From an uncultured Actinomycetota bacterium (GTDB lineage: Bacteria > Actinomycetota > UBA4738 > HRBIN12): a stretch of 64,000 nucleotides of DNA. The notes beneath the pieces are model-generated. The model saw only the letters and a list, made by a program, of their open reading frames with translations, was not told the DNA's origin and ran no database searches. The stretch spans positions 515 to 64,514 of the forward strand of contig CAVTTD010000017.1 in NCBI GenBank assembly GCA_963737525.1. Direction: 5' to 3'. This document shows, one piece after another, positions 9,163 to 51,174 of the stretch. The translations under genes were made by a program, and so were the position numbers. The first letter of the stretch is position 1; the number at the start of each line of letters is the position of its first letter.

Positions 9163-10419
9163 TCATTCCCCCGCCGGCGCCTCCGCTGGCGCGGCCTCGA
9201 CCTGCGTCTGGGGGACCGCGACCGGCTCGGCCAGCACGGGCTCCGCTTCCTCGGGCGTCGGCTCGGCGCCGGCGCCCGTAGCGACGTCTTCCTCCGTCGC
9301 CGCCTGAGGCTCCTCGGCCGCAACCACTTCAGCCGCCTCGTCGGGCGGCGGCGCAGAAGGCCTCGGCGCCGGCGAAGGCTCCGCCGCCTGGCTCTCGGAC
9401 TTGATGTCGATCCGCCATCCGGTCAGACGGGCCGCCAGTCGGGCGTTCTGCCCCTCCCTGCCGATCGCGAGCGAGAGCTGGTAGTCGGGGACGATCACGA
9501 GGGCGGTCTGCGTGTCGGGGTTGACCGTGACCTCCTTCACCTTCGCCGGCTGCAGCGCGTTCGCGACGAAGGTGGCCGACTCGTCCGACCACGGAACGAC
9601 GTCGATCTTCTCGCCACGGAGCTCGTTGACCACCATGCGCACGCGCGAACCCTTCGGTCCGACGCACGCGCCGACCGGATCGACGGCCGGCTCGTTCGAC
9701 GCGACCGCGATCTTCGACCGGTGTCCCGGCTCGCGGGCCACGGCCATGATCTCCACGATCCCCTCGTCGATCTCGGGCACTTCGAGCGCGAACAACGCCT
9801 TCAGCAGGCCCGGATGCGTCCGCGAGACGACGATCTGCGGACCCTTCGTCCCGCGACGAACCTCCGTGATGAATGCTTTGAGTCGCTCGCCATGGCGAAG
9901 CGGCTCCGACGGAACCTGCTCGCCCTGCGGAAGCAGTGCCTCCACCTTGCCGAGATCCAGCAACGTGTACCTGCGCTCCTGCTGCTGGACGATCCCGGTG
10001 ACCACGTCGCCCTCGCGTCCCGCGAACTCCTCGTAGGTCATCTCCCGTTCCGCATCTCGGAGCTTCTGGAAGATCACCTGCTTCGCCGTCTGGGCGCCGA
10101 TCCGTCCCTTGAAGTCATCCGTGACCTCGACCTCGGCCTCCGAGATGACCTTCATCTCGACCCCGGGCTCCTCGCTGCCCTCGGCCGGCGGGGTATCGAT
10201 CTCTTCGAGCTCCTGCTGCCACATACGAAGGTCGCCCGTCTCCGGGTCGATCACCGCGCGGAACCCGACGAACTCGTCGTTGCCGTCAGGGTGTTCCTGC
10301 TTCCAATGCGCCTTGTAAGCCGAGGCCATCGCCTCTTCCAAGCCGCCAAGGATCGTCTCGAAGGCGATCCCCTTCTCCCGCTCGAGCTCGCGCAGTGCGG
10401 CGATCATCTCGGCGTTCAT
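9163..10419 (-). CDS. nusA: transcription termination/antitermination factor NusA
   Basis: 418 aa with S1 and KH domains ([59 protein letters not shown]) and an acidic C-terminal tail. Confidence 0.95.
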
Positions 10420-10868
10420 CGGTCGCTCCCCTTCAGCTCCGCATCCCAGTCGACGATCGTCTTCGCGGCGGCCACCGCATCCAGCGGGACCCGATGCTCG
10501 ACCTCGTCGGCCGCGATCCGGATCTCATCGTCTTCGGCGGCGCGCAGCTCGCCCTCGAGCACACCCTCGTGGGTCTTCACCGATACCCGCTGCCCGACGG
10601 CGCGGCGGAAATCCTGCGGACGGCGCAAAGGCCGCTCGATCCCGGGCGTCGTCACCTCAAGGGCGTAGGGGCCGGGCTCGAAACCCTCCAGATCGAGGCG
10701 ACGTGACACCTTGCCCGACAACTGCGAGATCGTCCCGAGGTCGACGCCGCCGTCGCGATCGACGGTCACGCGGAGGATGCGGCGGCCGCCCTCGCGACCG
10801 AAGGTCACGTCGACGAGCTCGAGGCCCTCGCCCTCGATCACGGGTCTGACCAGCGCCTCCGCGTCCAC
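10416..10868 (-). CDS. rimP: ribosome maturation factor RimP
   Basis: 150 aa; GLELVDVTF...RILRVTVDRDGGVDL...YALEVTTPGIERPL is RimP-like. Its stop overlaps the nusA start. Confidence 0.9.
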   Translation of the reverse strand: MDAEALVRPVIEGEGLELVDVTFGREGGRRILRVTVDRDGGVDLGTISQLSGKVSRRLDLEGFEPGPYALEVTTPGIERPLRRPQDFRRAVGQRVSVKTHEGVLEGELRAAEDDEIRIAADEVEHRVPLDAVAAAKTIVDWDAELKGSDR

Positions 10869-10904
10869 GTTCCCCTCCTCTCGCCCTCGGGCCCGATGTC
10901 ACCC

Positions 10905-10935
10905 CTCGAAAAAGAAAGTGGGCGGCGAGCCCACT
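10905..10935 (-). terminator. Rho-independent terminator downstream of proS
   Basis: Minus strand reads AAGTGGGC-GCCGC-GCCCACTT (8-bp stem) followed by TTCTTTTTC, placed about 70 nt after the proS stop. Confidence 0.55.
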
Positions 10936-11008
10936 TCCGGCCGTGCAGATCGTCGTCGACCAGCCAGTATAGACAGCGCTCCCGGAACCGAGGTGGACGA
11001 GCGGCCCG

Positions 11009-12718
11009 CTACGGAGCGCTGCTGAGGAGGTCCTCGACCGCCTGTGAGGCGTCGGCCAGCGGAGCACTGGACCGTTCCCCCGTGGCACGGACCTTGAGGT
11101 CGACCGTGCCGCTCTCGAGGCCACGGGAGCCGACGACCACCTGGACGGGATAGCCCACGAGGTCGGCGTCGGCGAACTTGACGCCGGCCCGCTCCTCACG
11201 GTCGTCGAGGACAGCCTCGATCCCGCGCTCTCCGAGCTCTCGATAGATCCGCTCCGCCTCCTCCGTCACCACCGGCGCGTCGGCGTTGGCCATGATCACC
11301 GCGACCTCGTAGGGGGCGAGGAGCTTCGGCCAGATCATCCCGGCGTCGTCATGGTGCTGCTCGACCGTCGCCGCCATGATCCGGCTGATCCCGATCCCGT
11401 AGGACCCCATCACGTAGTGACGCTGCGATCCGTCCTCGGCTTGGTAGGTGGCCCCCAATGGCTCCGAATAGTTGGTCCCCAGCTGATAGATGTGACCGAC
11501 CACGATCGACCGCCCGATCTGCAGCGCTCCCCCGTCCACCGGGCATCGGTCGCCGTCGCGGATCTGGACGAGGTCCTCCCACCGATCGACCCGGAAGTCG
11601 CGATCGACATTGGCTCCCGTGACGTGGACGTCGACGCGGTTCGCGCCGGTGACCCAGTTGTTCCGTCCACGGACCGAGTGGTCCGCGAAGATCGTCACCT
11701 CCGGGCCGAGACCCTGCGGGCCGACGAAGCCTTTCGCGAAGCCCTTCGCCGCGAAGTCCTCGTCCTCGAAGCGGCGCACGCGCTCGGGGAAATGGAGGCG
11801 CGCGAGCTTCTCCTCTCCCACCTCGCGGTCGCCAGGGACCAGGGCGGCGACGGTCCGGCCCTCGACGTCGAACATGATGCATTTCAGGGTGGCCTCGGCC
11901 GGAACCCCCATCTGCTCCACCATCAGCTCGATCGTCACCGCGCCCGGCGTCTCCACCTCGGTCAGCGGCTCGAGGCCTTCCGCGGTCGCGGGGTCGGGCG
12001 CCCGGGGAGTGGCCGCCTCCGTGTCCGCGAGATAGTCGCCGTTCTCGCAGCGGACGAACAGATCCTCGCCCACGTCCGCCAGGGCCATGAACTCATGGTT
12101 GACGCTCCCCCCGATCGTTCCGGGGTCGGCCTCGACGATCACGTATTCGAGCCCGAGCCGGTCGAACACGCGCTGGTAGGCCTCGTACATCACGCGATAG
12201 GACTCGCGCATCCCGTCCTCGTCCCGGTCGAACGTGTAGGCGTCCTTCATCAGGAACTCCCGTGCACGGAGAAGCCCGAATCGGGGACGGAACTCATCCC
12301 GGTACTTCCATTCCACCTGGTAGACGTTGACGGGCAGGTCACGGTAGGAGGGGAACTCCTGCTGCACGAGGGGTGCCACGACCTCCTCCTGGGTGGGGCC
12401 CAGCAGGAACTCGCGTCCGTGCCGGTCCTCGAGGCGGAAGACCACGTCGCCGTAGGCCTGCCAGCGACCCGTGAGCTTCCAGGGCTCGGCGGGCAGGACG
12501 ATCGGCATGCGGAGCTCCTGGGCCCCGGATGCATCCATCTCCTCGCGAACGACCCGCGCGATCTTGTTCATCGTGCGGAGCCCGAGGGGCATCGAGGTGT
12601 AGATCCCCGCAGCGACCTTGCGGATGAACGCGGCGCGCAGCAGCAACCGGTGGGATGGGACGTCGGCCTCGGCCGGATCCTCCCGGAGCGTGCGCGCGAA
12701 CAGCCTGGATACCCGCAT
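11009..12718 (-). CDS. proS: prolyl-tRNA synthetase
   Basis: 569 aa bacterial-type ProRS with class II motifs (FRLEDRHGREFLLGPTQEEVV, MKDAYTFD, HVMGSYGIGISRIMA). Confidence 0.95.
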   Translation of the reverse strand: MRVSRLFARTLREDPAEADVPSHRLLLRAAFIRKVAAGIYTSMPLGLRTMNKIARVVREEMDASGAQELRMPIVLPAEPWKLTGRWQAYGDVVFRLEDRHGREFLLGPTQEEVVAPLVQQEFPSYRDLPVNVYQVEWKYRDEFRPRFGLLRAREFLMKDAYTFDRDEDGMRESYRVMYEAYQRVFDRLGLEYVIVEADPGTIGGSVNHEFMALADVGEDLFVRCENGDYLADTEAATPRAPDPATAEGLEPLTEVETPGAVTIELMVEQMGVPAEATLKCIMFDVEGRTVAALVPGDREVGEEKLARLHFPERVRRFEDEDFAAKGFAKGFVGPQGLGPEVTIFADHSVRGRNNWVTGANRVDVHVTGANVDRDFRVDRWEDLVQIRDGDRCPVDGGALQIGRSIVVGHIYQLGTNYSEPLGATYQAEDGSQRHYVMGSYGIGISRIMAATVEQHHDDAGMIWPKLLAPYEVAVIMANADAPVVTEEAERIYRELGERGIEAVLDDREERAGVKFADADLVGYPVQVVVGSRGLESGTVDLKVRATGERSSAPLADASQAVEDLLSSAP

Positions 12719-12756
12719 GAAGGAGAAGGATACCGGCGGGCTCGAGCCCGCCGACC

Positions 12757-14340
12757 CTAGACGTCCGTCACGGTGGCGATCACCTGTTGCCAGACCTCCG
12801 TTTGGCTTCCTCCGCCGTCATCGACCGGGTACGCCCCGTAGGTCGCCATCGCGGTCTGGTCGACGGGATCCCGCGAGATCGCGGTGAAATCACCCCATCG
12901 TTCCAGCCCCGGCGCGTACTCGTATCGCCCGGAACCCGCCTGGATGAGCACCGAGGCGGACGCCGTCGCACCGGGCTGGATCACGCCCGCGTAGGCGGCG
13001 AGGCACTCGCCCGCTCCCGCGCGCGCGTAGTTCACCCACACCTTGCCGTCGCCGTCGGTCGCGATGGAGGCCCACGCGGCGTCGTGACCGGCGGCGCCCA
13101 CCCGCCCCTTGCGGAGCACACGGGAGTCGCCCAGGATCGACGCGGGATCGACCTCCCACCAGCGGATCACCGACTCGTGAGGGCCACCACCGACGTTTCC
13201 TTCGATCGCGGTGGTCGTGTACAGGCTCCCACGGACGCCGTCCCAGAAGGACGACGTCAATCGGAGATCGCCGGTGTCCCACTTCGTGTTGAGGCCCGAC
13301 GTGTTCCCGCATTGCCGACCGAAGGGCGGATAGGCGATCGCCCCACCGCCCAGCGAAGCCCGCGTCAGCTTCAGCACGCCGTTCACCGTCTTCAGTCGCC
13401 ACAGGATCAGCTTCCCCGTGGAGCCGTTGAAGTCGAGCGACGTCATGTACTGGGTCGTGGGTGCAGCACCGAAGGAGATCGCGGGCACGATCGTGAACGC
13501 GGGCGACCCGTCCGGATCCTTCGTTTGGGTCCGGCTGAAGACCTTGATCGGGACCACGGGCACCGAGCAGTCATAGAGCTGTGACTTGCGGAACGAGACA
13601 ACCTGGACGTACTGGAAGCCTCCCACGAACGGAGCGTTCGTGTAGCCGAACTGGTTGGTCGTGAGCGTCACCCTGTTCTCCGTGAATCCGACCATCGGGT
13701 AGTCGGCCAGCTGCTTCCCGTTGTTGCTCACCTGGTCGCCGGACATGTGAAGCACGCACCAGTCCGCGGTGACATCCTCCGATCCTTCCGGGATCACCAC
13801 GATGGAGAGGAAACTCTGGGTGTTGCTCGCCGAGGCGAAGACCAACACGAAGTGCTGCCGGTACGGGTCGTAGAAGACCTTCGGGTCGAAGTCGTCGACA
13901 CCGGCGGGGAGTTGGTCGTCGAGGGAACGGAGACGTCTGGGTGGATCGAGCTGGACCCCGGCCCGATCGTAGAACGCCATATGGACGTTCACCGCCGCGA
14001 GATGGTCGGTGACCCCGAGGGCGCCGGTCGGGTCGGCCGGCGACACGAGCGCAAGATCGTCCACGCCGTCGAAGGGCGTCGGCACGACCGTCGGTGCGAG
14101 CGGTCCCCTTCCACGAGACGCCGAAGCATCCGATCCCGCCGGCGTCGCCCGACGGTCGCTCCCCGCCCGGACGAGCCTGGGGACCCGCGTCGACCGGGGG
14201 CCGCCGCCAGCGTCGACCCCGGAGATCCCCGCGACGTGGACCCTCGGTGACCGGTCGGTCGCAGTCGCTGATTGCGAGGGTGACGGGAACGCAAGCACCG
14301 TGACGACTGCCGTGAGACACCAAGTGAGTCGACGAAGCAT
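12757..14340 (-). CDS. secreted hypothetical protein (signal peptide; likely beta-rich fold)
   Basis: ATG at 14340 with GGAGGA about 8 nt upstream. N-terminus MLRRLTWCLTAVVTVLAFPSPSQSATA is a signal peptide. 527 aa, rich in W/G/T with no recognisable catalytic motif. The 841-aa ORF call is inflated by an in-frame upstream run with junk composition. Confidence 0.65.
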   Translation of the reverse strand: MLRRLTWCLTAVVTVLAFPSPSQSATATDRSPRVHVAGISGVDAGGGPRSTRVPRLVRAGSDRRATPAGSDASASRGRGPLAPTVVPTPFDGVDDLALVSPADPTGALGVTDHLAAVNVHMAFYDRAGVQLDPPRRLRSLDDQLPAGVDDFDPKVFYDPYRQHFVLVFASASNTQSFLSIVVIPEGSEDVTADWCVLHMSGDQVSNNGKQLADYPMVGFTENRVTLTTNQFGYTNAPFVGGFQYVQVVSFRKSQLYDCSVPVVPIKVFSRTQTKDPDGSPAFTIVPAISFGAAPTTQYMTSLDFNGSTGKLILWRLKTVNGVLKLTRASLGGGAIAYPPFGRQCGNTSGLNTKWDTGDLRLTSSFWDGVRGSLYTTTAIEGNVGGGPHESVIRWWEVDPASILGDSRVLRKGRVGAAGHDAAWASIATDGDGKVWVNYARAGAGECLAAYAGVIQPGATASASVLIQAGSGRYEYAPGLERWGDFTAISRDPVDQTAMATYGAYPVDDGGGSQTEVWQQVIATVTDV

Positions 14341-21349: not shown

Positions 21350-22476
21350 CTAGATGGTCGGGAGTGGCTGCGTGATGTCGAGGAAGACCGTCGCGATCGC
21401 GAAGATCGAGAGGAACACGATCACCGCCGCGGAGATGGGGACGAGCTTCCGGTAGTCGGCCTGCCGACCGGTGAGCTTCTCCCAAGCCAGGAGCGCCAGG
21501 TGACCTCCGTCGAGCGGCGGCAAGGGAACAAGGTTCACGACGCCGATGAACACGGTCACATACGCGGCGAAGCCGAGGAACAGAGCCCAGTCGCCCCGAT
21601 CACCCGCAACGCCGATCTGGCGGCTCACCCCGACGAGGCTCGTCGGGTCGTCGGCGCGACGTGGCTCGTCGCTGAACAGGACGGTGAACGTTCGACCCAC
21701 GCCTTGGGTGAAGATCTTCGGGATCGCCGCCACGCTGTTCCAGGTGGCCTTCCCGACCCATCGGCCCGACGCGACCGCCGCCTCCGGGAGCGAAAGGGGC
21801 TCCGGGCCCAAGCGTGAACCCGATCCTCCCCTTCGTCGCGCCGTCCTCCGTGACGAGCTTCGGCACGATCCGCAACGTGATGATCCGTCCGTCGCGTTCC
21901 ACCACGTAGCGAGGGGTTCGTCCGGGTGCTCGCTTCGCGAAGCGGGTCACGTACCGCCCGAGCGTCTCCGGAGTCGGACCGGACGATCTCGCCGACGCGC
22001 ACGACGACATCGCCGACCCGGAGTCCGGCTACCTTCGCCGGCGACACGTCGCCGCTGAGCGTCCCCGAGACATCACCGACGACCACCTTGTTGGTATCGA
22101 GGTTCCCGTACGTGGCGAAGAGCACGAAGTACAGGACGGCACCCATGAGGAAGTGCGATCCGGGACCCGCGAGGATCACCAGCGCTCGCTGCCAGATCGG
22201 CTTGGACCCGTACGCGCGCGGAAGATCTTCGGATGGAACCGTCTCGTAGGGATTCATCCCGGCGATCTTCACGTAGCCGCCGGCCGGGATCGCCTTGACG
22301 CCGTACTCGATCTCCCCGCGCTTCCTCGACCAGAGCCTCGGTCCGAACCCGACGAAATACTCCGTCACTTTGAAGGCGTAACGACGAGCCACCAGCAGGT
22401 GGCCGAGTTCGTGGAGGGGTATGACGACGAGGAGGATCAGCGCGAGGAAGCCGGCGATCGCGTAGACGCTCCCCAC
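21350..22476 (-). CDS. rseP: RseP-type site-2 protease (M50, with PDZ domain); two apparent frameshifts
   Basis: Three frames in order. HELGH N-terminus: MGSVYAIAGFLALILLVVIPLHELGHLLVARRY... PDZ middle: YVVERDGRIITLRIVPKLVTEDGATKGRIGF. C-terminus with NLVPLPPLDGGH. Frame joins at about 21969-21990 and 21800-21815 (GGGCCC context). Confidence 0.8.
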
Positions 22477-42069: not shown

Positions 42070-43578
42070 ATGGCGATCACCGCCGAGAGGTTGAGCCGGT
42101 CGAGCGGCGGGCGAAGGATCGTCTCGATGGACGCTGGGCAACCACCTCTTCGGGCCACCTCCCTTCTCGGGCTGGGCGATCGCCTTCGGGCTGATGGCGG
42201 ATGTGCTGACGGACGGTCCTCCCGGGGTCGGCTTCCTCCTCACGACCACGTGGCGGCGCTCGGAGTGGCCCTCGTCGCACGCCCGAAAAGCCAAGCGATC
42301 GCGTTCCTGGTCGCCGGGGTCGCCCTGGTCTCGTTCACCGTCGTTCGCGCGAGCCCCGTGCTCGCGGGTCTCGACCTCCTCAGTCGGGATCGGCCTGTTC
42401 GCCCTCGCGGGCGCATTCGCCCGCGAGGGAAACGTCGTGCGGACGGGCGTGCGCGCCTACGTCGCCCGCGCCTTCGGATGGACGGCACGATCCCGGCTGC
42501 CGGAGCGTTCCTGCTTCGCCCACTCGGGAGGCTGGTCCCCGGTCGGCGTCCAACTGGTCCTCCCACGCGCGCTGCTGATCGCGCTCCCCGTCGGCATCGC
42601 CTTCGCCGTCCTGTTCGCATCGGCGGACGCGGTCTTCGCGAAGCTCCTGCGGACCCCGTTCGAACAGCTTCCGCTCGGCGAGATCCCGAGGCACATCGTG
42701 GTCGTGGCTGGCGGCGCCGCGGGGTTCTCGACGCTCGCTGTCCGATCCTCGGTCCCGATCCGGCTCGGCCGATCCGCGCAGCCCATCGAAGGAGGCGGAC
42801 TCCGTCCGGCCGACTGGATCTCTCTGCTCGCGACCGTCGACATCGTGTTCGCGTTGTTCGTCGGGGTGCAGCTGTTCACGTTCTTCGGCGGGCGACGGTA
42901 TGTCTCGGCGGTCACCGGCCTGACGTTCGCCGAGTACGCCCGCTCGGGGTTCTGGCAGATGCTCGCCGCGGCGACGCTCACGGGACTCGGTGATCACCGC
43001 CTCCTGGATCGGCGGACGCCCGGCGTCGAGCGGTCGAACGGACATCGTTCAAGATCCTCGCCGGCGTGCAGATCGCTCTGGCGCTCGTCGTCCTGGCGAG
43101 CGCCTTCCAACGCCTCGTCCTCTACGAGACCGAGTTCGGCTACACGTGGCCACGGCTGATCCCGCACGCGGCGATCCTGCTCACCGCGGCGTTGCTCGGG
43201 TGCGGCCTCGTCGCCATCCTCACGGGACGCACGGTGTGGCTCCCCACGGCTGCGCTCTGCCTCGGGCTCCTCACGGTGGTCGGACTCAACGTCCTCGACC
43301 CGGAAGCCTTCATCGCGGAGCGCAACATCGCCCGCGTCGCGCGTGGGTACGAACTGGACACGCGGGAGCTGGCTTCCCTTTCGGCGGACGCGGCCCCGGC
43401 CATCGCGACCGCGCTTCCCGAGCTGGATCCGCCGATCAGGCAGCAGGTGGCGCGGGACCTCTCGTGCCTTCGCGCCGAGCTCCGGAAGGGCGTGTCTCGC
43501 TTCGGATGGGCCTCGTTCAACGTGGCGCGCGACACCGCGCTCGAACGACTGGATGGGCTGCGACTTCCGCCGTGCTGA
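42070..43578 (+). CDS. DUF4173-family polytopic membrane protein; at least two apparent frameshifts, 5' end uncertain
   Basis: Family-typical segments [56 protein letters not shown] and [43 protein letters not shown], read across three frames. Joins near 42380-42400 and 43034-43045. Confidence 0.45.
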
Positions 43579-43599
43579 ACAGGCGCGACGACGGATCGG

Positions 43600-44271
43600 C
43601 TAGTGCTCGAGGTCAGGCCGGTTCCGATGCGTCTTCTCGAGTGCGGCGTCGGCGCGCCACCGCTCGATCGCGCCATGATCGCCAGAGAGCAAGACCTCGG
43701 GCACGGCCATGCCACGGTACTCGGGCGGCCGGGTGTAGTGGGGATGGTCCAAGGACCAGGGTTCCGCGAAGGAATCCCGCTCGTGGGACTCCTCCTTGCC
43801 GATGACGCCGGGAACGAGCCGGGTGACGGCCTCGATGACCACCAGCGCAGGGATCTCGCCGCCCGCGACCACGTAGTCCCCGATCGACACCTCTTCGGCC
43901 GGGAGCCCTTCGACGACCCGCTCGTCCACACCTTCGTACCGGCCGCAGAGGAGTGTCAGGTGTTCCTCCTCGGCGAGTTCTCGCACGAAGGCCTGGTCCA
44001 GAGGCCGTCCTGCCGGGGACAGGAGCAGCACACGGCCGCGGTCTGGATCCAGCGACTCGACCGCGGCGAAGAAAGGCTCGGGCTTCATCACCATCCCCGG
44101 ACCGCCGCCGTACGCCGTGTCGTCGACCATCCGGTGGCGATCGTCGGACCATTCCCGGAGGTCGTGCACCCGGACGTCGAGCAACCCTTCCGCGATCGCC
44201 TTCCCCAGGAGGCTCTCCCGCACAGGCCCTCCGAAGATCCCCGGGAAGATCGTGAACACGTCGATCCGCAT
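43600..44271 (-). CDS. trmD: tRNA (guanine37-N1)-methyltransferase
   Basis: 223 aa; MRIDVFTIFPGIF...DVRVHDLREW...VDDTAYGGGPGMVMKPEP...LLCGRYEGVDERV is classic TrmD. Confidence 0.93.
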   Translation of the reverse strand: MRIDVFTIFPGIFGGPVRESLLGKAIAEGLLDVRVHDLREWSDDRHRMVDDTAYGGGPGMVMKPEPFFAAVESLDPDRGRVLLLSPAGRPLDQAFVRELAEEEHLTLLCGRYEGVDERVVEGLPAEEVSIGDYVVAGGEIPALVVIEAVTRLVPGVIGKEESHERDSFAEPWSLDHPHYTRPPEYRGMAVPEVLLSGDHGAIERWRADAALEKTHRNRPDLEH

Positions 44272-44352
44272 CGAGCGAGGCTAGCAACGTTGCGTCCGCG
44301 ACCGCGTCGAGGCACGATGCGCCCGACCGGCCGCGGGCCGGACGGAGGAACG

Positions 44353-46632
44353 ATGACGCCGATCGTCCTGGTGGTGCTCATGTTCGTCGGGATCGTGATC
44401 GCCGTGGACACCGTGCGTCGGCGGAAGATCCGCATCGCGCGAACGATCGATCTCCAAGGGTGGGTCGCCGCGCGCCTTGCGGAACCGGGGCCGCCGGTGC
44501 TCACGGAGGCGCTCGCCTCGGCGTTGACGCGCGAGCCGCCGGTCCACGTGGATCTCTACGTCAAGCTGACCGAGTCCCTGGAGATCGCCAACCTGCGCCC
44601 TCGGCTGCGGGACGGGTGCGAGGTGAAGATCTTCCGGCTCCGCTGGGGGAACGACTTCGCGATGATCGCTCGCGACGACCGTGAGCTCCACTATCGGCTC
44701 GAGGTCTGGGAGGCGGAGCTGCTCCCGAAGCTGGACGGGACGAGGACCGTCGGTGATCTGGTCGTCGAGCGGATGGAAGCCGGTGGTGGGCTCGACGCCG
44801 AGCCGGTGACCGATCTCGTCGTGGCCTTGTACGGAGGCGGTTTCCTCGATCCCGCTCCCATCGCGACCAACGAGCTGATCGTGGACCGGCTCGATCCCTC
44901 GTCCCCGGGCCGAAAGAAGCTGACGCGGTTCGGCAAGACACTCTCGATCGAGTGGAAAGGCGCGGACCGTCTGGTCCGCTTCTGCTATCGGAACCTCCTG
45001 CGGCCGTTCTTCTGGTGGCCCGTCGCGCTCGTGTCCGGCCTCGTCGCGATCGCTGGGCTGGCAGCCTTCGTCGATGTCTATGCCTCCGGACGGTTCTCGA
45101 TCGGGGGGGAATCCGCCCCGACCGAGGCGGCGATCTTGCTCGCCCTCGCGTTCTTCCTGACGTTCATGCACGAGCTCGGGCACTCGGTCGTCATCTCCCG
45201 TTACAACCGGAAGGTGAAGGGCGCCGGCTTCATGATCTATTTCGGCTCGCCTGCCTTCTTCGTCGAGGCGACGGACAGCCTCATGCTCGAACGAAGACAG
45301 CGCATCCTCCAAGCTTCCGCCGGGCCGTTCACGGAGCTGATCATCGCCGGAGTGGCTTCGCTCGTGATCTTCGCTTCCCCAGACGGTCCGCTTGCGGACC
45401 TGCTCTACAAATTCGCGCTCCTCAACTACATCGTGATCTTCCTGAATCTCGTCCCCTTGCTGGAACTCGACGGCTACTTCATCCTCTCCGACCTGATCCA
45501 GGTCCCCGACCTCCGACCCCGCTCCCTTCAGTTCATCCAGCACGACCTGTGGCACAAGATCTCGTCGCGCGAACGCCTGACGCCCCAGGAGTGGGGTCTC
45601 GGGGGATACGGGTTCGCCGGGATCGCGTTCACGATCTTCTCCTTCTGGACGGGATTGTTCTTCTGGAAGGTGATCTTCTTGAATCTGGCCGTCGGTCTTT
45701 GGAACGGCGGCATCGGCTCGAAAGTCTTGTTGGTGCTGCTGGGCGCGTTCCTCGCTGGACCGATCATCCGCGGCCTGCTCACACTGACTCTCAGCCTCGT
45801 GAGGCGCATCAGGGGACTCGTTCGAGCGATCCGGTTCCGCCTCGAGACCACCTGGCGGGTCGAGGCGGCGGAGCTGATCGACGCGCTCCCGGCGTTCGAC
45901 GATCTTCCCGAGGATGTCCTCTCGGACCTCGCGGGGCGTGTGCGACTGCGGATCCTTCGCGCCGGCGAGCCGGCCTTCCGCCAAGGGGACCAGCCGGACG
46001 CCTTCTACATCGTGCGGCGGGGCACCGTGCGCATCGAGGACGAGGATCCGGAGACGAGCGCCACACGCATCATCCGGACGATGGGTCGGGGCGAATCGTT
46101 CGGCGAGATGGGGCTCCTCGGCGGGCGACGGCGCCAGGCGACCGTCCGGGCAGGGGACGACGTGGAGCTCTTCGAGGTGGACAAGGGCACCTTCGACCGG
46201 CTGCTCGCCGATGACATGCGCGCGCCTGAGTTCGGTCACACGATGCAGGCGCTCGCCGAGCTCCGGGAGCTCTCGGTCTTCCACGGGCTGGACTCCGAGC
46301 AGCTGAACGTCATCCTTGAACACGGGGAGTGGATCACTGCCGTCCACGGCGACGAACTCATCACACAAGGTGAGCCGGGAGACCGGTTCTACGTGATCGA
46401 GTCGGGACGGGCCGAGATCATCCGGGACGGGACCGGCCTCGACTCCGTGAGCAAGGGGATGTACTTCGGCGAGGTTGCCCTGCTTCGCGACGTCCCGAGG
46501 ACGGCCACGGTGGTCGCCTCCACCCCGATGCGTCTGTTCGCCCTCGATCGTGAAGGCTTCGAGCTCGTCGTCGCCGATGCCTTCCGGCGCGGTACGCTCC
46601 GCCCCGCCGCCGACCGCATCTGGCAGCACTGA
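44353..46632 (+). CDS. M50-family (site-2-protease-like) metalloprotease fused to two C-terminal cyclic-nucleotide-binding domains
   Basis: ATG at 44353 after GGAGGA. 759 aa.
- N-terminal TM MTPIVLVVLMFVGIVIAV.
- An about 200-aa domain of unknown type.
- M50 core with HExxH (FFLTFMHELGHSVV) and the S2P second motif (LNLVPLLELDGYFIL) amid TM helices.
- Two CAP_ED domains: FGEMGLLGGRRRQATVRA and FGEVALLRDVPRTATVVA. Confidence 0.75.
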   Translation: MTPIVLVVLMFVGIVIAVDTVRRRKIRIARTIDLQGWVAARLAEPGPPVLTEALASALTREPPVHVDLYVKLTESLEIANLRPRLRDGCEVKIFRLRWGNDFAMIARDDRELHYRLEVWEAELLPKLDGTRTVGDLVVERMEAGGGLDAEPVTDLVVALYGGGFLDPAPIATNELIVDRLDPSSPGRKKLTRFGKTLSIEWKGADRLVRFCYRNLLRPFFWWPVALVSGLVAIAGLAAFVDVYASGRFSIGGESAPTEAAILLALAFFLTFMHELGHSVVISRYNRKVKGAGFMIYFGSPAFFVEATDSLMLERRQRILQASAGPFTELIIAGVASLVIFASPDGPLADLLYKFALLNYIVIFLNLVPLLELDGYFILSDLIQVPDLRPRSLQFIQHDLWHKISSRERLTPQEWGLGGYGFAGIAFTIFSFWTGLFFWKVIFLNLAVGLWNGGIGSKVLLVLLGAFLAGPIIRGLLTLTLSLVRRIRGLVRAIRFRLETTWRVEAAELIDALPAFDDLPEDVLSDLAGRVRLRILRAGEPAFRQGDQPDAFYIVRRGTVRIEDEDPETSATRIIRTMGRGESFGEMGLLGGRRRQATVRAGDDVELFEVDKGTFDRLLADDMRAPEFGHTMQALAELRELSVFHGLDSEQLNVILEHGEWITAVHGDELITQGEPGDRFYVIESGRAEIIRDGTGLDSVSKGMYFGEVALLRDVPRTATVVASTPMRLFALDREGFELVVADAFRRGTLRPAADRIWQH

Positions 46633-46643
46633 AAGGGGAACGC

Positions 46644-46856
46644 GTGGATTGCTGGCACTGCCGCCGGACCGCCGTGGGGACCTGCCGATTCTGCGGTCGC
46701 GGCGTCTGCGAGGACCACGCGGAGACCCAGCCGTTCGTGCTCGAGCTGTTCCGGAGCAAGGACGTCACCCGCGCGCTCGTCGTGGAGGACGCGCTCTGGT
46801 GCGCGGCCTGCACACCTCGCCCGGACCCGGTGGACCTGCCGGAGCTCGATGCCTGA
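46644..46856 (+). CDS. small four-Cys zinc-ribbon protein
   Basis: GTG start 11 nt after the protease stop, with AAGGGG SD. 70 aa: (M)DCWHCRRTAVGTCRFCGRGVCEDHAE...LWCAACTPRPDPVDLPELDA, carrying CxxC-x7-CxxC-x4-C ... CxxC. Confidence 0.5.
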   Translation: MDCWHCRRTAVGTCRFCGRGVCEDHAETQPFVLELFRSKDVTRALVVEDALWCAACTPRPDPVDLPELDA

Positions 46857-46870
46857 CGTCCCGTTCCAGG

Positions 46871-46970
46871 TGTGACCTACGTCACATCCCGCGCCTGTTC
46901 CGCGTCACATCTCGCGGTCGTTGGGCGTCACAACGCTCCTGGTGACGAATGTCACCGTCTTCGCGTGACA
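46871..46970. promoter_or_regulatory. cluster of CRP/FNR-type boxes
   Basis: Perfect TGTGA-N6-TCACA (TGTGACCTACGTCACA, 46871-46886). GTCACA half-sites at 46904 and 46927. GGTGACGAATGTCACC (46941-46956). GTGACA at 46965, giving TGTCAC-N9-GTGACA. The cluster lies 14 bp after the zinc-ribbon ORF and upstream of the small basic ORF and the CRP-family gene. Confidence 0.55.
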
Positions 46971-47065
46971 CGCACCACCGACCGGCCGTGCCCGAGGCGA
47001 CATGATTCGGGTGTCGAAGAACAGGGCCCGACTCGGGCCCACGGACTCAGGAGGAGGACCCTGGG

Positions 47066-47200
47066 ATGGCGGACAAGAAGATCACTCCGAAGGCGGCAAG
47101 CTCCAAGGACAAGGCGTCGGGCGACCGCGCCGCGGCTCGCGTCTCGCTGAGGACCACCAAGCGGACGACCAAGCGGACCACCAAGCGGACCACCAAGTAG
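47066..47200 (+). CDS. 44-aa highly basic peptide with C-terminal (TTKR)x4 tandem repeat
   Basis: ATG at 47066 with strong SD AGGAGGAGGA (47049-47058). Translation: MADKKITPKAASSKDKASGDRAAARVSLRTTKRTTKRTTKRTTK. A hairpin GGGCCCG-ACT-CGGGCCC (47024-47040) precedes it and a terminator follows. Too short for the ORF track. Confidence 0.45.
   Translation: MADKKITPKAASSKDKASGDRAAARVSLRTTKRTTKRTTKRTTK
47153..47197 (+). repeat. 12-nt tandem repeat (ACCACCAAGCGG x3.75) encoding the TTKR repeats
   Basis: Units: accaccaagcgg / acgaccaagcgg / accaccaagcgg / accaccaag. Confidence 0.8.
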
Positions 47201-47231
47201 CAGGTCCGATCTTCGGACTGAACGTGATCGA

Positions 47232-47266
47232 GGACGGGCGCCGCAGGCGCCCGTCCTTCGTTTTGG
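47232..47266 (+). terminator. Rho-independent terminator after the small basic ORF
   Basis: GGACGGGCGCC-GCAG-GCGCCCGTCC (perfect 10-11-bp stem) followed by TTCGTTTTGG. Confidence 0.6.
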
Positions 47267-47301
47267 CTTGCACGAGGCAGCCGGGCTAGGCTCCTCTCGT
47301 C

Positions 47302-48003
47302 ATGCGAAGGGCCGACGACCTCCAGGTAGGCAAGGTGATGGCGGGCGCCCCGTTCCTCGAGCAGGTCCCGCACGAGGCCCTGGATCGGTTCGCCACGCAG
47401 GGCGCCGTCCACCGCTTCCGCCGGGGGACCTACCTCTGTCACCAGGGCGACCCGGACGGAGACGTCTTCTTCCTGGTATCCGGCCGGGTCGAGATCAGCT
47501 CCGAGACGGCCAACGGGAACAGGGTGTTGCACGCGACCTTGGATACCCCCGGGTTCGTCGGCGAGCTCTCGGCCCTCGGGAAGATGCCGAGGACCGCGAG
47601 CGTCCTCACCCTCGACGACTCGGACGTGTGGTCGACGGGGCCAGAGTCCTTCCTCGACTTCGTGACGGCCGAACCAGCCGCGTCTCGCGGCTTCCTCCAG
47701 GCGCTGGCCCGCCAGGTTCGGGAGCATCAGTCCTTCACCGACGACCTCCTGCACCTCGACCTGAAGGGCCGGCTCGCGAAGCGGCTCCTCCAGCTCGTGA
47801 CGCCCACCCTCGACGATCTTCCGAAGGACGGGGTACTCGTCCCGGCCGTCACGCACGCCGACCTTGCGAGCCTGTGCGGCGGCAGCCGGGAGAACGTGAC
47901 CCGCATCCTCACCGAGTGGCAGCGGCGCGGGCTCGTGGAGCGCGATGGGCATCGCTACGTCCTGAAGAAGGTGTCCGGCCTGGCGAAGATCGCCGACCTC
48001 TAG
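47302..48003 (+). CDS. CRP/FNR-family transcriptional regulator (CRP-like, no Fe-S cysteines)
   Basis: cNMP-binding domain (GDPDGDVFFLVSGRVEI...FVGELSALG...RTASVLT). C-terminal HTH with TGTGA-reading residues ADLASLCGGSRENVTRILTEW. Alternative start ATG 47338 (MAGAPFLEQ...) has a better SD. The stop shares CTAG with the rimM stop. Confidence 0.85.
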   Translation: MRRADDLQVGKVMAGAPFLEQVPHEALDRFATQGAVHRFRRGTYLCHQGDPDGDVFFLVSGRVEISSETANGNRVLHATLDTPGFVGELSALGKMPRTASVLTLDDSDVWSTGPESFLDFVTAEPAASRGFLQALARQVREHQSFTDDLLHLDLKGRLAKRLLQLVTPTLDDLPKDGVLVPAVTHADLASLCGGSRENVTRILTEWQRRGLVERDGHRYVLKKVSGLAKIADL

Positions 48004-48533
48004 TCCTGAGTCTCCTCTGGGGACTCTTCGGGCGCGGTGAGTCCCGGCACGTCTTTCACCACGATCGTTCGAGCGACGACGTCGACGTCGACGAGGAGGT
48101 CGGCGAGCGCCGGGACCAATGTTTCGTTCCCTTCCTCGTCCACGGCGACCCAGAGGTCGTTGGCTGGGTTCGGGATGACCTCCTTCACGATGCCGAGGAC
48201 GCGGCCCGACGCGGTCCGCACCTCGCACCCCTCGAGCTGGTAGGCCCACCACTCTTCGTCCGCCAGATCGGGCAGCCAGGACTCCGGGACGACGAGAACG
48301 GCACCACGGAGATCCTCGGCGGCGCTGCGATCCACGATCCCCGCGAACTTCACGATCAGTCGGCGGCCGTGGCGTCTGCTCGCTTCGATCGTGAGCGCGG
48401 CACCGTCTTCGCGGAGGACGGTGCCACCCGGCGCCCAGCGATCCGGATTGTCGGAGCGGTTCTGTACGGAGACATCCCCGCGAAGGCCGTGGACCCCTGT
48501 CACCACGCCGACGACGACGGTCGGCTCGTCCAC
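48000..48533 (-). CDS. rimM: 16S rRNA processing protein RimM
   Basis: GTG start 1 nt after the KH-protein stop: (M)DEPTVVVGVVTGVHGLRGDVSVQNRSDNPDRW... plus PRC barrel ...VLGIVKEVIPNPANDLWVAV. 177 aa. Confidence 0.88.
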   Translation of the reverse strand: MDEPTVVVGVVTGVHGLRGDVSVQNRSDNPDRWAPGGTVLREDGAALTIEASRRHGRRLIVKFAGIVDRSAAEDLRGAVLVVPESWLPDLADEEWWAYQLEGCEVRTASGRVLGIVKEVIPNPANDLWVAVDEEGNETLVPALADLLVDVDVVARTIVVKDVPGLTAPEESPEETQD

Positions 48534-48534
48534 C

Positions 48535-48765
48535 TCAGTCTTCGATGTCCACCATGGCGCCATGACCCTGGCGCTGCGCGGCCGCGCGGACGACGGTGCG
48601 GATCGCCTTGGCCGTTCGGCCGCCCCGGCCGATGACCTTGCCCATGTCATCCGGGGCCACCCGAACGCGATAGCGAGGACCACGCTCGTCGAAGGTTTCC
48701 TCGATGGAGACGGAATCGGGCTCGTCGACCAACTCCTGCACGAGGAACTCGACGAGATCCTTCAC
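48535..48765 (-). CDS. KH-domain RNA-binding protein
   Basis: 76 aa; [56 protein letters not shown]. Conserved rpsP-KH-rimM arrangement; ATGA overlap with rpsP. Confidence 0.8.
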
Positions 48766-49346
48766 GCGTCCTCCGTGTCGGACGTCTCGGCCGCAGGGAG
48801 TTCCTCGGCCTCGACCGGTGCCGTTGCCTCGGCCGGTGCCGCTTCCGTCGGCGACTCCTCCGCGGGTACGTCAGCGACGGCCTCGACCGCTTCGGCGGCA
48901 CCCGCCTCCGCGACCTCTGGCTCCGCGACCTCTGGCTCGGCGACCTCTGGCTCGGCCTCCACTGCGGGGGCTTCTTGAACGGTCGGCTCGGGTTCGGAGG
49001 CCGCGGCCTCAGCTTTCTGCTTGGCCTTCTTCGACAGCTTCGGCTTGGACGTCCGCTCTTTCGCGGGACCGGCGTCCGCCGACGGACGCTCCTTCACGAA
49101 CTCCTCCCAGATACCCACCTTCTTCATCAGGTTGCGGACCTGGTCCGAGGGTTGTGCCCCCACACGCAGCCAGTGCAGGGCCCGGTTCTGGTCGATCTCG
49201 ATCACGCTCGGATCGTCGAGCGGGTGGTACTTGCCGATGTTCTCGATGAAACGGCCGTCGCGGGGACTCCGCTGGTCCGCCACCACGACGCGGAAGAACG
49301 GGCGCTTGTTCGAGCCCATCCTCCGGAGCCGGATCCTGGTCGTCAT
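48762..49346 (-). CDS. rpsP: 30S ribosomal protein S16 with Ala/Glu/Pro-rich C-terminal extension
   Basis: [43 protein letters not shown]... then a repetitive (AEPEV)n tail. Confidence 0.93.
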
Positions 49347-50787: not shown

Positions 50788-51174
50788 CTACTCGGCAGGC
50801 GCCGCGTCCTCCGGTCCGAGGACGTCCTCGACGGCTTGGAGGAGCGCGATCGGACTGAACGGCTTGGTGAAGTAGTGGTCCGCACCCGCGGTCATCGCCG
50901 CGGCTCTCCCTTCTTCCCCCGTCGCGGTCACCACGATCACCCGAACCTCCGAGGTAACCGGGTCGCTCTTCACGGCGGCGAGCACTTCCGACCCGGACAC
51001 GCCGGGGATGCTCATGTCGAGCAAGACGAGGTCGGGTCGTTCGTCCTGGACGGCGGCGAGTGCTTGATCGCCGTCGGACGCCTCGTCGATGTCGAACCCC
51101 TCGCCCTCGAGCACGAGGCGCATCGCCTCCCTCATCGTCGGATGGTCTTCGACGATCAGGATCCGGGCGCTCAC
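50788..51174 (-). CDS. single-domain (CheY-like) response-regulator receiver protein
   Basis: 128 aa; [14 protein letters not shown]...[15 protein letters not shown]...TKPF; no output domain. Lies between ftsY and ffh; ATGA overlap with the ftsY stop. Confidence 0.8.

Follow-up and report, generated by a model that had tools for sequence, protein, structure and literature searches.

A large uncharacterised family of RRE-bearing site-2 proteases carries predicted tandem cyclic nucleotide sensors and sits in a compact, probably CRP-controlled peptide cassette

Introduction

A prior site-1 cut or inhibitory proteins control the known site-2 proteases (S2Ps), and ATP may also do so through CBS domains. 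The published grouping of these enzymes distinguishes members with PDZ domains, with CBS domains, or with no extra domain, and fusions to cyclic nucleotide-binding (CNB) domains go unmentioned in it (PMC10202637). One S2P, SpoIVFB, captures its substrate by β-sheet augmentation on a re-entrant loop and makes contacts along the linker between its domains (PMC11486902). A review of the proteases of peptides that are made on ribosomes and modified after translation (RiPPs) covers the M50 enzymes EpeP, TglG, and TmoG and likewise makes no mention of CNB fusions (PMC10885120). The daptide cluster encodes a DUF-RRE protein (RRE, RiPP recognition element), an oxidative decarboxylase, an aminotransferase, and a methyltransferase, and its precursors end in Thr (PMC10036551). 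Here we describe a gene from an uncultured Actinomycetota bacterium whose product joins an RRE, an S2P core, and two CNB domains. The gene lies in a 64,000-nucleotide stretch of DNA (hereafter the window) taken from positions 515 to 64,514 of contig CAVTTD010000017.1 (GenBank assembly GCA_963737525.1, forward strand). The RRE-S2P family to which it belongs is large and uncharacterised; its proteases have predicted tandem sensors for cyclic nucleoside monophosphates (cNMPs) and are encoded in a compact peptide cassette that is probably under CRP control.

Results

A single intact gene encodes the protease

The protease gene is contained in an open frame that runs from 43603 to 46632. The first ~250 codons of this frame are antisense to trmD, which is encoded on the opposite strand at 43600–44271 (Pfam tRNA_m1G_MT, E 3e-63), an ATG at 44353 has a GGAGGA Shine–Dalgarno sequence 6 nt 5′ of it, and homologues of 759–762 aa that are 77–91% identical cover 100% of the query; thus, we take 44353–46632 to be the right gene. 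A preliminary description of the window had read from the product a transmembrane (TM) helix, a domain of ~200 aa, an M50 core, and two cNMP domains, all of which were found by Pfam, hydropathy, and homologue alignment, and the catalytic motifs and phosphate-binding cassettes (PBCs) that it had picked out are each present in the 759-aa product. The domain architecture of the protease is near certain.

The same description had called this architecture unusual. We found a large, already machine-annotated family instead: the protein database held 1226 matches to the protease, the best 120 of which are 77–100% identical, 758–780 aa long, and in every case match along their whole length and carry PF02163 and PF00027. 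A profile search added further clades at 51–59% and 31–54% identity with the same domain layout, and an exhaustive search with residues 1–500 gave 9670 representatives of 50%-identity clusters at E ≤ 1e-3. Among the 150 representatives nearest to residues 1–500, 67 are full length (≥640 aa), and 54 of these 67 have two CNB domains. The description had allowed that domain prediction might fail or that the frame might be two genes fused by a sequencing error. A fusion is ruled out by the more than 1200 proteins of the same architecture together with the 54 representatives; the gene is one intact unit, and Pfam supports both the M50 and the cNMP parts. Database labels for the family read 'CRP-like cAMP-binding protein/Zn-dependent protease' or 'cyclic nucleotide-binding domain-containing protein'. 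As such, the architecture can already be read from automated annotation; the account of function developed below is drawn from comparative genomics and structure prediction.

Several other frames in the window bear on the quality of the contig. An antisense open reading frame (ORF) of 782 aa (44281–46629, minus strand) spans nearly the whole protease gene, and we judged it an artefact of the 68.8% G+C content. The gene at 21350–22476 (minus strand), offered in the preliminary description as a canonical rseP, turned out to occupy three frames (21625–22476, 21600–22010, and 21350–21811) rather than one open frame; one frame change falls at a short GGG/CCC run and the other near GTCCGGTCC, and the split gene is either a pseudogene or a product of assembly indel errors. 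A DUF4153 gene is broken into overlapping frames (42194–43159 and 43066–43578, plus strand) and is one 491-aa gene in locus L001, and a pyridoxal-dependent decarboxylase (36432–37502, plus strand) has 356 aa versus 503 aa in L001. The split DUF4153 gene and the shortened decarboxylase are further signs of indel errors in the contig; the protease gene itself is intact.

Motif, profile, and topology evidence place the core in the M50/S2P family

Peptidase_M50 (PF02163) matched the core at 30.9 bits (gathering score, 27.2; E 2.2e-7). Our family profile matched MjS2P (3b4r) with E 3e-7 over a span from HExxH to LDG, and SpoIVFB (8vjl) was a weak match (E 0.23). Hydropathy gave six segments between residues ~218 and 478, besides the helix at 3–21. 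HELGH lies inside the hydrophobic segment 257–277, at the cytoplasmic end of a helix, and NLVPLLELDG lies inside segment 349–379, with NLVPLLELDGYF occupying residues 365–376. The three alignments in which the catalytic residues are invariant reach down to ~28% identity. In the AlphaFold2 (AF2) model, strands 290–296 and 299–305 are predicted to form a re-entrant β-hairpin (290–305) after the HExxH helix. We conclude, on the strength of the sequence, that the gene product is a predicted seven-TM zinc intramembrane protease of the S2P/M50 family, for which zinc-dependent hydrolysis is the expected chemistry.

The N-terminal domain has an RRE fold

The ~200-aa region after the first TM helix matched nothing that the preliminary description could name. 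Fold topology and an alignment to the NCBIfam daptide metalloprotease model NF041824 identify it as an RRE of the PqqD-like type. That model aligns to residues 100–446 (E 8e-46, 157 bits; cut-off 300), beginning well upstream of the M50 core. When divergent members were aligned, conservation began near residue 65 with the pattern ...Y.RL...E..L...MDG.RTV.ELV......G.L....V..LV..L...GFL, which is typical of PqqD-like domains. The TM helix at 3–21 is confined to the protease's own clade and its nearest sister, other family members beginning at about residue 65 of the alignment. AF2 placed a helix at 68–76, strands at 90–94, 102–106, and 113–117, and helices at 118–126, 133–142, and 150–161 in this domain, and a separate structure model of residues 60–215 agreed with the full-length topology; the modelled succession of three β strands and then three helices is that of a winged-helix fold. 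LynD, MibB, NisB, MccB, and TglI are later entries of the comparison list given for the N-terminal domain. Sequence-profile matches to RREs were weak (PaaA-like_N, E 0.05–0.28; PaaA 5ff5, E 0.9; the RRE portion of NF041824 alone, E 0.006).

We conclude that the ~200-aa region is an RRE followed by juxtamembrane helices. With this identity, the substrate to expect is a small peptide with a leader-like motif rather than a membrane-anchored anti-sigma factor. Both the RRE and the face of the active site are likely to be cytoplasmic, given the cytoplasmic CNB domains and the positive-inside RRRKIRIAR after the first helix.

The C-terminal domains resemble the tandem CNBs of PKA-R and PKG

Pfam cNMP_binding matched the C-terminal region twice (E 1.9e-39), and we observed a tandem CNB β-barrel fold whose closest likeness in the PDB is to the tandem CNBs of PKG and PKA-R, both by sequence (E 3e-47) and by fold matches. 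The cassette motif FGEMGLLGGRRRQATVRA begins at residue 583 and FGEVALLRDVPRTATVVA at residue 705. Gly-Glu and Arg-x-Ala-[ST] of the PBC are kept in both CNBs in 340 of 386 full-length family members. The C-terminal pair consists of PKA-R-like CNB domains that are predicted to bind cAMP or cGMP, and the protease contains bona fide CNB and RRE folds.

Direct second-messenger control of the protease would be the natural reading of this layout, and it gains support from the PBC residues kept in both CNBs and from the cNMP signalling parts in the gene neighbourhood. The CNB domains could instead be insensitive to cAMP and cGMP and serve as an oligomerisation or docking scaffold, or bind another ligand. 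Trypanosome PKA-R binds nucleosides, cAMP-independent PKA-R structures are among our fold matches, and 46 of the 386 family members failed the strict two-PBC pattern. We consider an insensitive pair quite unlikely, in view of the ribose-contacting Glu and phosphate-contacting Arg that are kept in both PBCs family-wide and of a cassette that includes Crp and a CRP box, to which some loci add a cyclase and stand-alone CNB proteins.

A conserved cassette surrounds the protease gene

In the window, the protease gene breaks the rpsP-rimM-trmD-rplS cluster, which lies on the opposite strand, and its neighbours are trmD, zf70 (a gene for a 70-aa Cys-rich protein), a small peptide gene, crp, and rimM (Table 1). 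A scan of one genome per species gave at least 582 relatives, of which we took the best 80 (45–88% identity); all 80 are from metagenome-assembled genomes (MAGs) of uncultured Actinomycetota or Actinomycetes. Protease, zf70, and Crp follow one another in this order on one strand in ~78 of the 80 loci. The trmD/rimM context is found in only ~35 loci, so that the cassette holds together regardless of position. Clustering of flanking ORFs of at least 80 aa gave no other universal cassette gene, and the remaining clusters define two alternative genomic contexts. R-E-x-x-x-R of the Crp recognition helix, kept in 73 of 76 loci, matches the TGTGA-reading residues of E. coli CRP, in which R180, E181, and R185 read this half-site.

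The zf70 protein has the ligands C3, C6, C14, C17, C22, H25, C53, and C56, all eight of them invariant across loci, and the tail PRPDPVDLPELDA, which is near-invariant as PRPxP..PELD. It is also present in distant clades, where the proteases are ~36% identical. This raises the possibility that zf70 is itself the partner of the RRE, bound via the acidic tail PRPDPxDLPELD, and that it is cleaved or restrains the protease, in the way that BofA and SpoIVFA act on SpoIVFB; under this reading, the cationic peptide would be a separate CRP-regulated product. The gene starts 11 nt past the protease stop and occurs in 80 of 82 loci, its product is 64–100% identical and more conserved than the protease, with the near-invariant tail, and it stays with the protease both in the ~36%-identical clades and in locus L085, which is without Crp. 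Still, we hold zf70 to be an unlikely RRE partner: RRE ligands normally have a conserved leader and a variable core and are often multicopy, as the cationic peptides are; zf70 looks like a folded, soluble, metal-binding protein (DUF2180) without a hydrophobic segment; and branches with NHLP-type neighbours (below) have no called zf70-sized gene beside the protease, although no zf70 search was made there.

Three further observations concern the cassette and its surroundings. Locus L086 (GCA_050257835.1, labelled Planctomycetaceae) has the trmD-cassette-rimM arrangement as in Actinomycetota, and its contig may be mis-binned. A 128-aa stand-alone response-regulator receiver is encoded between ffh and ftsY (genes for SRP54-family GTPases) in L001 (14484–14870) and L002 (14424–14810). 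The same receiver gene occurs in the window at 50788–51174 (minus strand), just downstream of an SRP54-type GTPase gene. A search of positions 43500–48800 for RNA elements gave no Rfam match, and no sigma-70-type promoter was found between 44100 and 48100 in a scan that is uninformative for a high-GC actinobacterium.

Table 1. Features of the protease gene and its cassette in the window (positions counted from the first nucleotide of the window).
Feature	Position	Strand	Evidence or remark
RRE-S2P(M50)-CNB-CNB protein, 759 aa plus stop	44353..46632	+	ORF and start; Pfam and NCBIfam matches; full-length homologues
N-terminal TM helix, residues 3–21, then RRRKIRIAR (positive-inside)	44359..44415	+	Hydropathy 2.67; AF2 helix 2–30
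RRE, PqqD-like winged helix, residues ~65–165	44545..44847	+	Three strands within 90–117, then helices within 118–161
Six-TM M50/S2P core, residues ~215–480	44995..45792	+	PF02163; MjS2P 3b4r profile match; hydropathy; AF2
HELGH zinc-binding/catalytic motif, residues 273–277	45169..45183	+	H273, E274, and H277 invariant in three alignments
NLVPLLELDG motif, residues 365–374, D373 as third zinc ligand	45445..45474	+	N365, P368, L372, D373, and G374 invariant
Linker helix, residues 454–510, predicted continuous from TM6 to CNB-A	45712..45882	+	AF2 secondary structure
cNMP-binding domain A, residues ~512–622, PBC FGEMGLLGGRRRQATV at 583–598	45886..46218	+	Pfam; PKA-R/PKG sequence and fold matches
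cNMP-binding domain B, residues ~631–746, PBC FGEVALLRDVPRTATV at 705–720	46243..46590	+	Pfam; PKA-R/PKG sequence and fold matches
zf70, 70-aa Cys-rich metal-binding protein	46644..46856	+	DUF2180, E 9e-5, above cut-off; 11 nt past protease stop
Perfect CRP box TGTGACCTACGTCACA (TGTGA-N6-TCACA)	46871..46886	.	Sole perfect site in the 64-kb window
Second palindrome GTGACGAATGTCAC, 4-nt spacer, possibly an auxiliary site	46942..46955	.	Inverted-repeat scan
Cationic repeat peptide, 44 aa: MADKKITPKAASSKDKASGDRAAARVSLR then (TTKR)x3 TTK; candidate RRE ligand/substrate	47066..47200	+	Shine–Dalgarno GGAGGAGGA upstream
Terminator-like hairpin, 13-bp stem with 10 GC pairs, T-rich tail	47230..47268	+	Just 3′ of peptide gene
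Crp/Fnr-family regulator (CNB + HTH_Crp_2), recognition helix GGSRENVTR	47302..48003	+	Pfam and NCBIfam

A CRP box precedes a gene for a cationic repeat peptide

Just after zf70, 76 of the 77 loci carry a CRP box with no more than one mismatch, and the box is perfect in 51 of these. The density of boxes is 2.67 per kb, compared with 0.016 per kb in the flanks, a ~170-fold enrichment, and across loci a second site often lies 22–24 bp from the first. The peptide gene was found in 74 of the 87 retrieved loci and gave 78 distinct sequences of 36–92 aa. Their N termini share the consensus MA-x-KK-I-x-PK-A-P ... AA-x-RV-T, and their C-terminal halves consist of tandem short basic units (TTKR, ETKR, QTKR, KKLSH, ARN, TAR, KKQLA, RRWSA, and GRAGLKKT) that vary even between close relatives; Lys makes up 23% of the tails, Arg 19%, and Thr 11%. 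The gene is present twice in several loci and three times in some. The protein collection holds no gene for the exact 44-aa sequence, the peptides being uncalled in this genome, and no Pfam or NCBIfam family matched the small peptides. A precursor-like peptide with a conserved leader and a variable core, of the kind expected beside an RRE, is thus linked to the protease, and the cationic repeat peptides may be a new peptide class. Across loci, a GC-rich hairpin follows the peptide gene on its 3′ side (mean ΔG –37 kcal/mol in 70 nt, mean z –3.8).

The small ORF and the hairpin might together be read as an attenuation leader for crp that senses Lys, Arg, and Thr through repeated codons; in the window, 30 nt separate the end of the ORF from the strong hairpin that precedes crp, and the tail of the ORF is made up of runs of Thr, Lys, and Arg codons. 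We find this barely credible and have rejected it, since both the peptide and the hairpin are still there when crp is convergent (L083 and L084) or missing (L085), and also when there are three copies of the peptide gene. Moreover, the first 30 residues show protein-level conservation over deep divergence, and at 36–92 aa the peptides exceed typical attenuation leader peptides, which are shorter.

Another possibility is that the protease carries out classical regulated intramembrane proteolysis of an unlinked membrane-anchored regulator, in which case the CNB pair would only tune the enzyme and the small genes would be passengers. This is the mode of all well-studied bacterial S2Ps (PMC10202637), and in one Frankiales locus the protease and zf70 are followed by a gene for an extracytoplasmic function (ECF) sigma factor and by one for a 356-aa protein with a hydrophobic segment. 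In ~80 loci, however, no sigma/anti-sigma pair is conserved beside the protease, whereas conservation of the small genes, the CRP box, and the hairpin goes far past what chance would give. A peptide is the ligand suggested by the RRE domain, and the protease has no PDZ or sizeable extracytoplasmic domain with which to sense a site-1 cut. Taken together, these features make a classical mode very unlikely in our judgement.

Distant clades keep the parts of the cassette in other arrangements

Uncultured soil Actinomycetota are rich in members of this family, and Dormibacterota and Solirubrobacterales have related forms. Clades that are ~36–40% identical carry the same parts, with the addition of stand-alone CNB proteins and a cyclase with a Guanylate_cyc domain. 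In L083, whose protease (P0141) is 36% identical to query residues 1–500, the protease is followed by a peptide of the form MEMPKKITPEYEG...(TRST/TRNT)n, and a zf70 homologue, Crp, and a stand-alone CNB protein adjoin. In L084, a Mycobacteriales MAG, the protease and zf70 are followed by a peptide that ends in ten TRQ repeats, and Crp and a 1213-aa Guanylate_cyc/AAA_16/TPR cyclase (9600–13241, minus strand) adjoin. The crp gene is convergent in both loci. The stand-alone CNB proteins have 141–147 aa (L084, 4499–4942, minus strand; L083, 9566–9991, plus strand). Together, the cyclase and the stand-alone CNBs would place a source of cyclic nucleotide and further sensors at the same locus. In each of L083 and L084, the sole CRP-like box in 13–14 kb lies just upstream of the peptide gene. 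The peptide paralogues of L085 (5170–5871, minus strand) have 66–80 aa, a shared leader-like start KIQPxKPG, and repeats of NHNETTR or TTRGW, and they are less basic.

Two further branches (L087, 137–4220, and the JGI contig carrying P0458) adjoin precursor-like proteins of the NHLP clan, of 106 and 379 aa, instead of small cationic peptides. These neighbours match Frankia_peptide (PF14407) and the Os1348 family (NF038399, 49 bits versus a cut-off of 40); CNB proteins go unmentioned in the NHLP paper of Haft (2010). The Crp gene of L087 overlaps the protease start by 4 nt. We also observed a long form of 1000–1160 aa (representatives P0166–P0266, for example P0174 from a Solirubrobacterales MAG), in which ~350–400 residues are inserted between the core and the CNB pair; the insert comprises several predicted TM helices and a soluble stretch and had no Pfam match.

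Discussion

We propose a scheme in which one cyclic nucleotide acts at two points, driving transcription of the peptide gene via Crp and gating the cleavage guided by the RRE via the CNB pair, and we give this scheme about an even chance of being right. Rising cAMP (or cGMP) would load the Crp-family regulator, which would bind TGTGA-N6-TCACA and turn the peptide gene on. The same nucleotide would bind the CNB pair and relieve auto-inhibition through helix 454–510, which is attached to TM6. The RRE would then capture the leader-like part of the peptide, MA(E/D)KKI(T/S)PKAP...AA(A/T)RV(T/S), by strand addition and present it to the active site, in a manner that we liken to substrate capture by SpoIVFB (PMC11486902). 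Cleavage would part the leader from the cationic tail, and the tail might be released (possibly exported), act inside the cell, or be destroyed. In this scheme, zf70 would be an obligate partner of the protease.

Several points weigh against this picture. That the peptide is the ligand of the RRE we infer from gene linkage only, and zf70 is linked as tightly and is more conserved. Flanking-ORF clustering gave no modification enzyme conserved in the cassette, so the peptide would be unmodified, which is unusual for RRE-dependent systems. Purely polar tails exist, for example (TTKR)n, (TRQ)n, and (ARN)n, unlike the hydrophobic or amphipathic segments usually cut by S2Ps. In L085, a Frankiales MAG with three tandem peptide genes and zf70, an ECF sigma factor replaces Crp. 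As for structure, the full-length AF2 model has a mean predicted local distance difference test (pLDDT) score of 75 and a predicted template modelling (pTM) score of 0.48, so the relative placement of the domains is unreliable. Whole-model fold searches gave CNB matches only, among the matches listed, and the S2P fold thus rests on sequence and AF2 secondary structure. Finally, our literature search found no paper on M50/S2P proteins with cNMP domains, on RREs with cyclic nucleotides, or on DUF2180.

In its strongest form, our proposal holds that the protease is the first cyclic-nucleotide-gated intramembrane protease and also the processing/release enzyme for a new class of unmodified cationic repeat peptides, both under one messenger and with zf70 as an obligate component; we advance this version tentatively, as a possibility that we do not expect to hold in full. 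If true, a nucleotide-gated S2P would add a direct link from a second messenger to proteolysis, and RiPP biology would gain a leader peptidase with signal-dependent activity. Very little of the signalling biology of these uncultured groups has been characterised, and the compact cassette makes clear predictions, each inferred step of which is addressable with cloned parts.

Of the known systems, we compared the protease with S2Ps, with CNB-containing enzymes, and with the daptide leader peptidase. The group I S2P RseP has the same zinc-protease motifs but a different domain set and gene context; BLASTP aligned it with the RseP of the window only over HELGH and a short following stretch (E 0.011). 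With no PDZ match in Pfam and no sizeable extracytoplasmic loop by hydropathy, we ruled out membership of group I. Membership of group III was ruled out by the tandem CNB at the C terminus and the lack of a CBS match in Pfam.

Among proteins with CNBs, PKA-R and PKG have canonical PBCs in common with the tandem CNB-A/B here, whereas the output domain here is an intramembrane protease. The actinobacterial cAMP-gated acetyltransferase Pat (Rv0998) matched the CNB region in sequence and fold. Binding of cAMP to the CNB of Pat relieves auto-inhibition of its acetyltransferase domain, a precedent for the gating proposed here. TIGR03896 ('cyc_nuc_ocin'), a bacteriocin-type transport-associated tandem-CNB protein, resembles our protein at the CNB level only (52 bits versus a 161-bit cut-off) and is stand-alone, soluble, and ~317 aa long, unlike the protease fusion here; through its name, annotation already ties CNB pairs to the handling of bacteriocins.

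The group III S2Ps SpoIVFB and MjS2P have in common with the protease the six-TM core with HExxH and LDG, the re-entrant β loop between the second and third core helices, and a linker to a C-terminal cytoplasmic sensor of nucleotide type, which is CBS there and a tandem CNB here. Sequence similarity to them is confined to the catalytic motifs, an RRE is added N-terminally here, and a small soluble peptide, not Pro-σK, is the probable substrate. The daptide leader peptidase MpaP (NF041824, PMC10036551) likewise has an N-terminal RRE fused to an intramembrane S2P/M50 core and shares with this cassette the small peptide genes beside the protease, several copies in some loci. MpaP as described is without CNB domains, and the cassette here adds zf70, the CRP box, and the Crp regulator. 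We rejected orthology to MpaP and membership of a daptide cluster: the protease scores 156.9 bits, far below the 300-bit equivalog cut-off, no daptide modification genes are nearby, and the local peptide ends in Lys. On these comparisons, the protease probably acts in the manner of MpaP, as a RiPP leader peptidase that depends on an RRE, with its sensor placed where SpoIVFB and MjS2P carry CBS domains.

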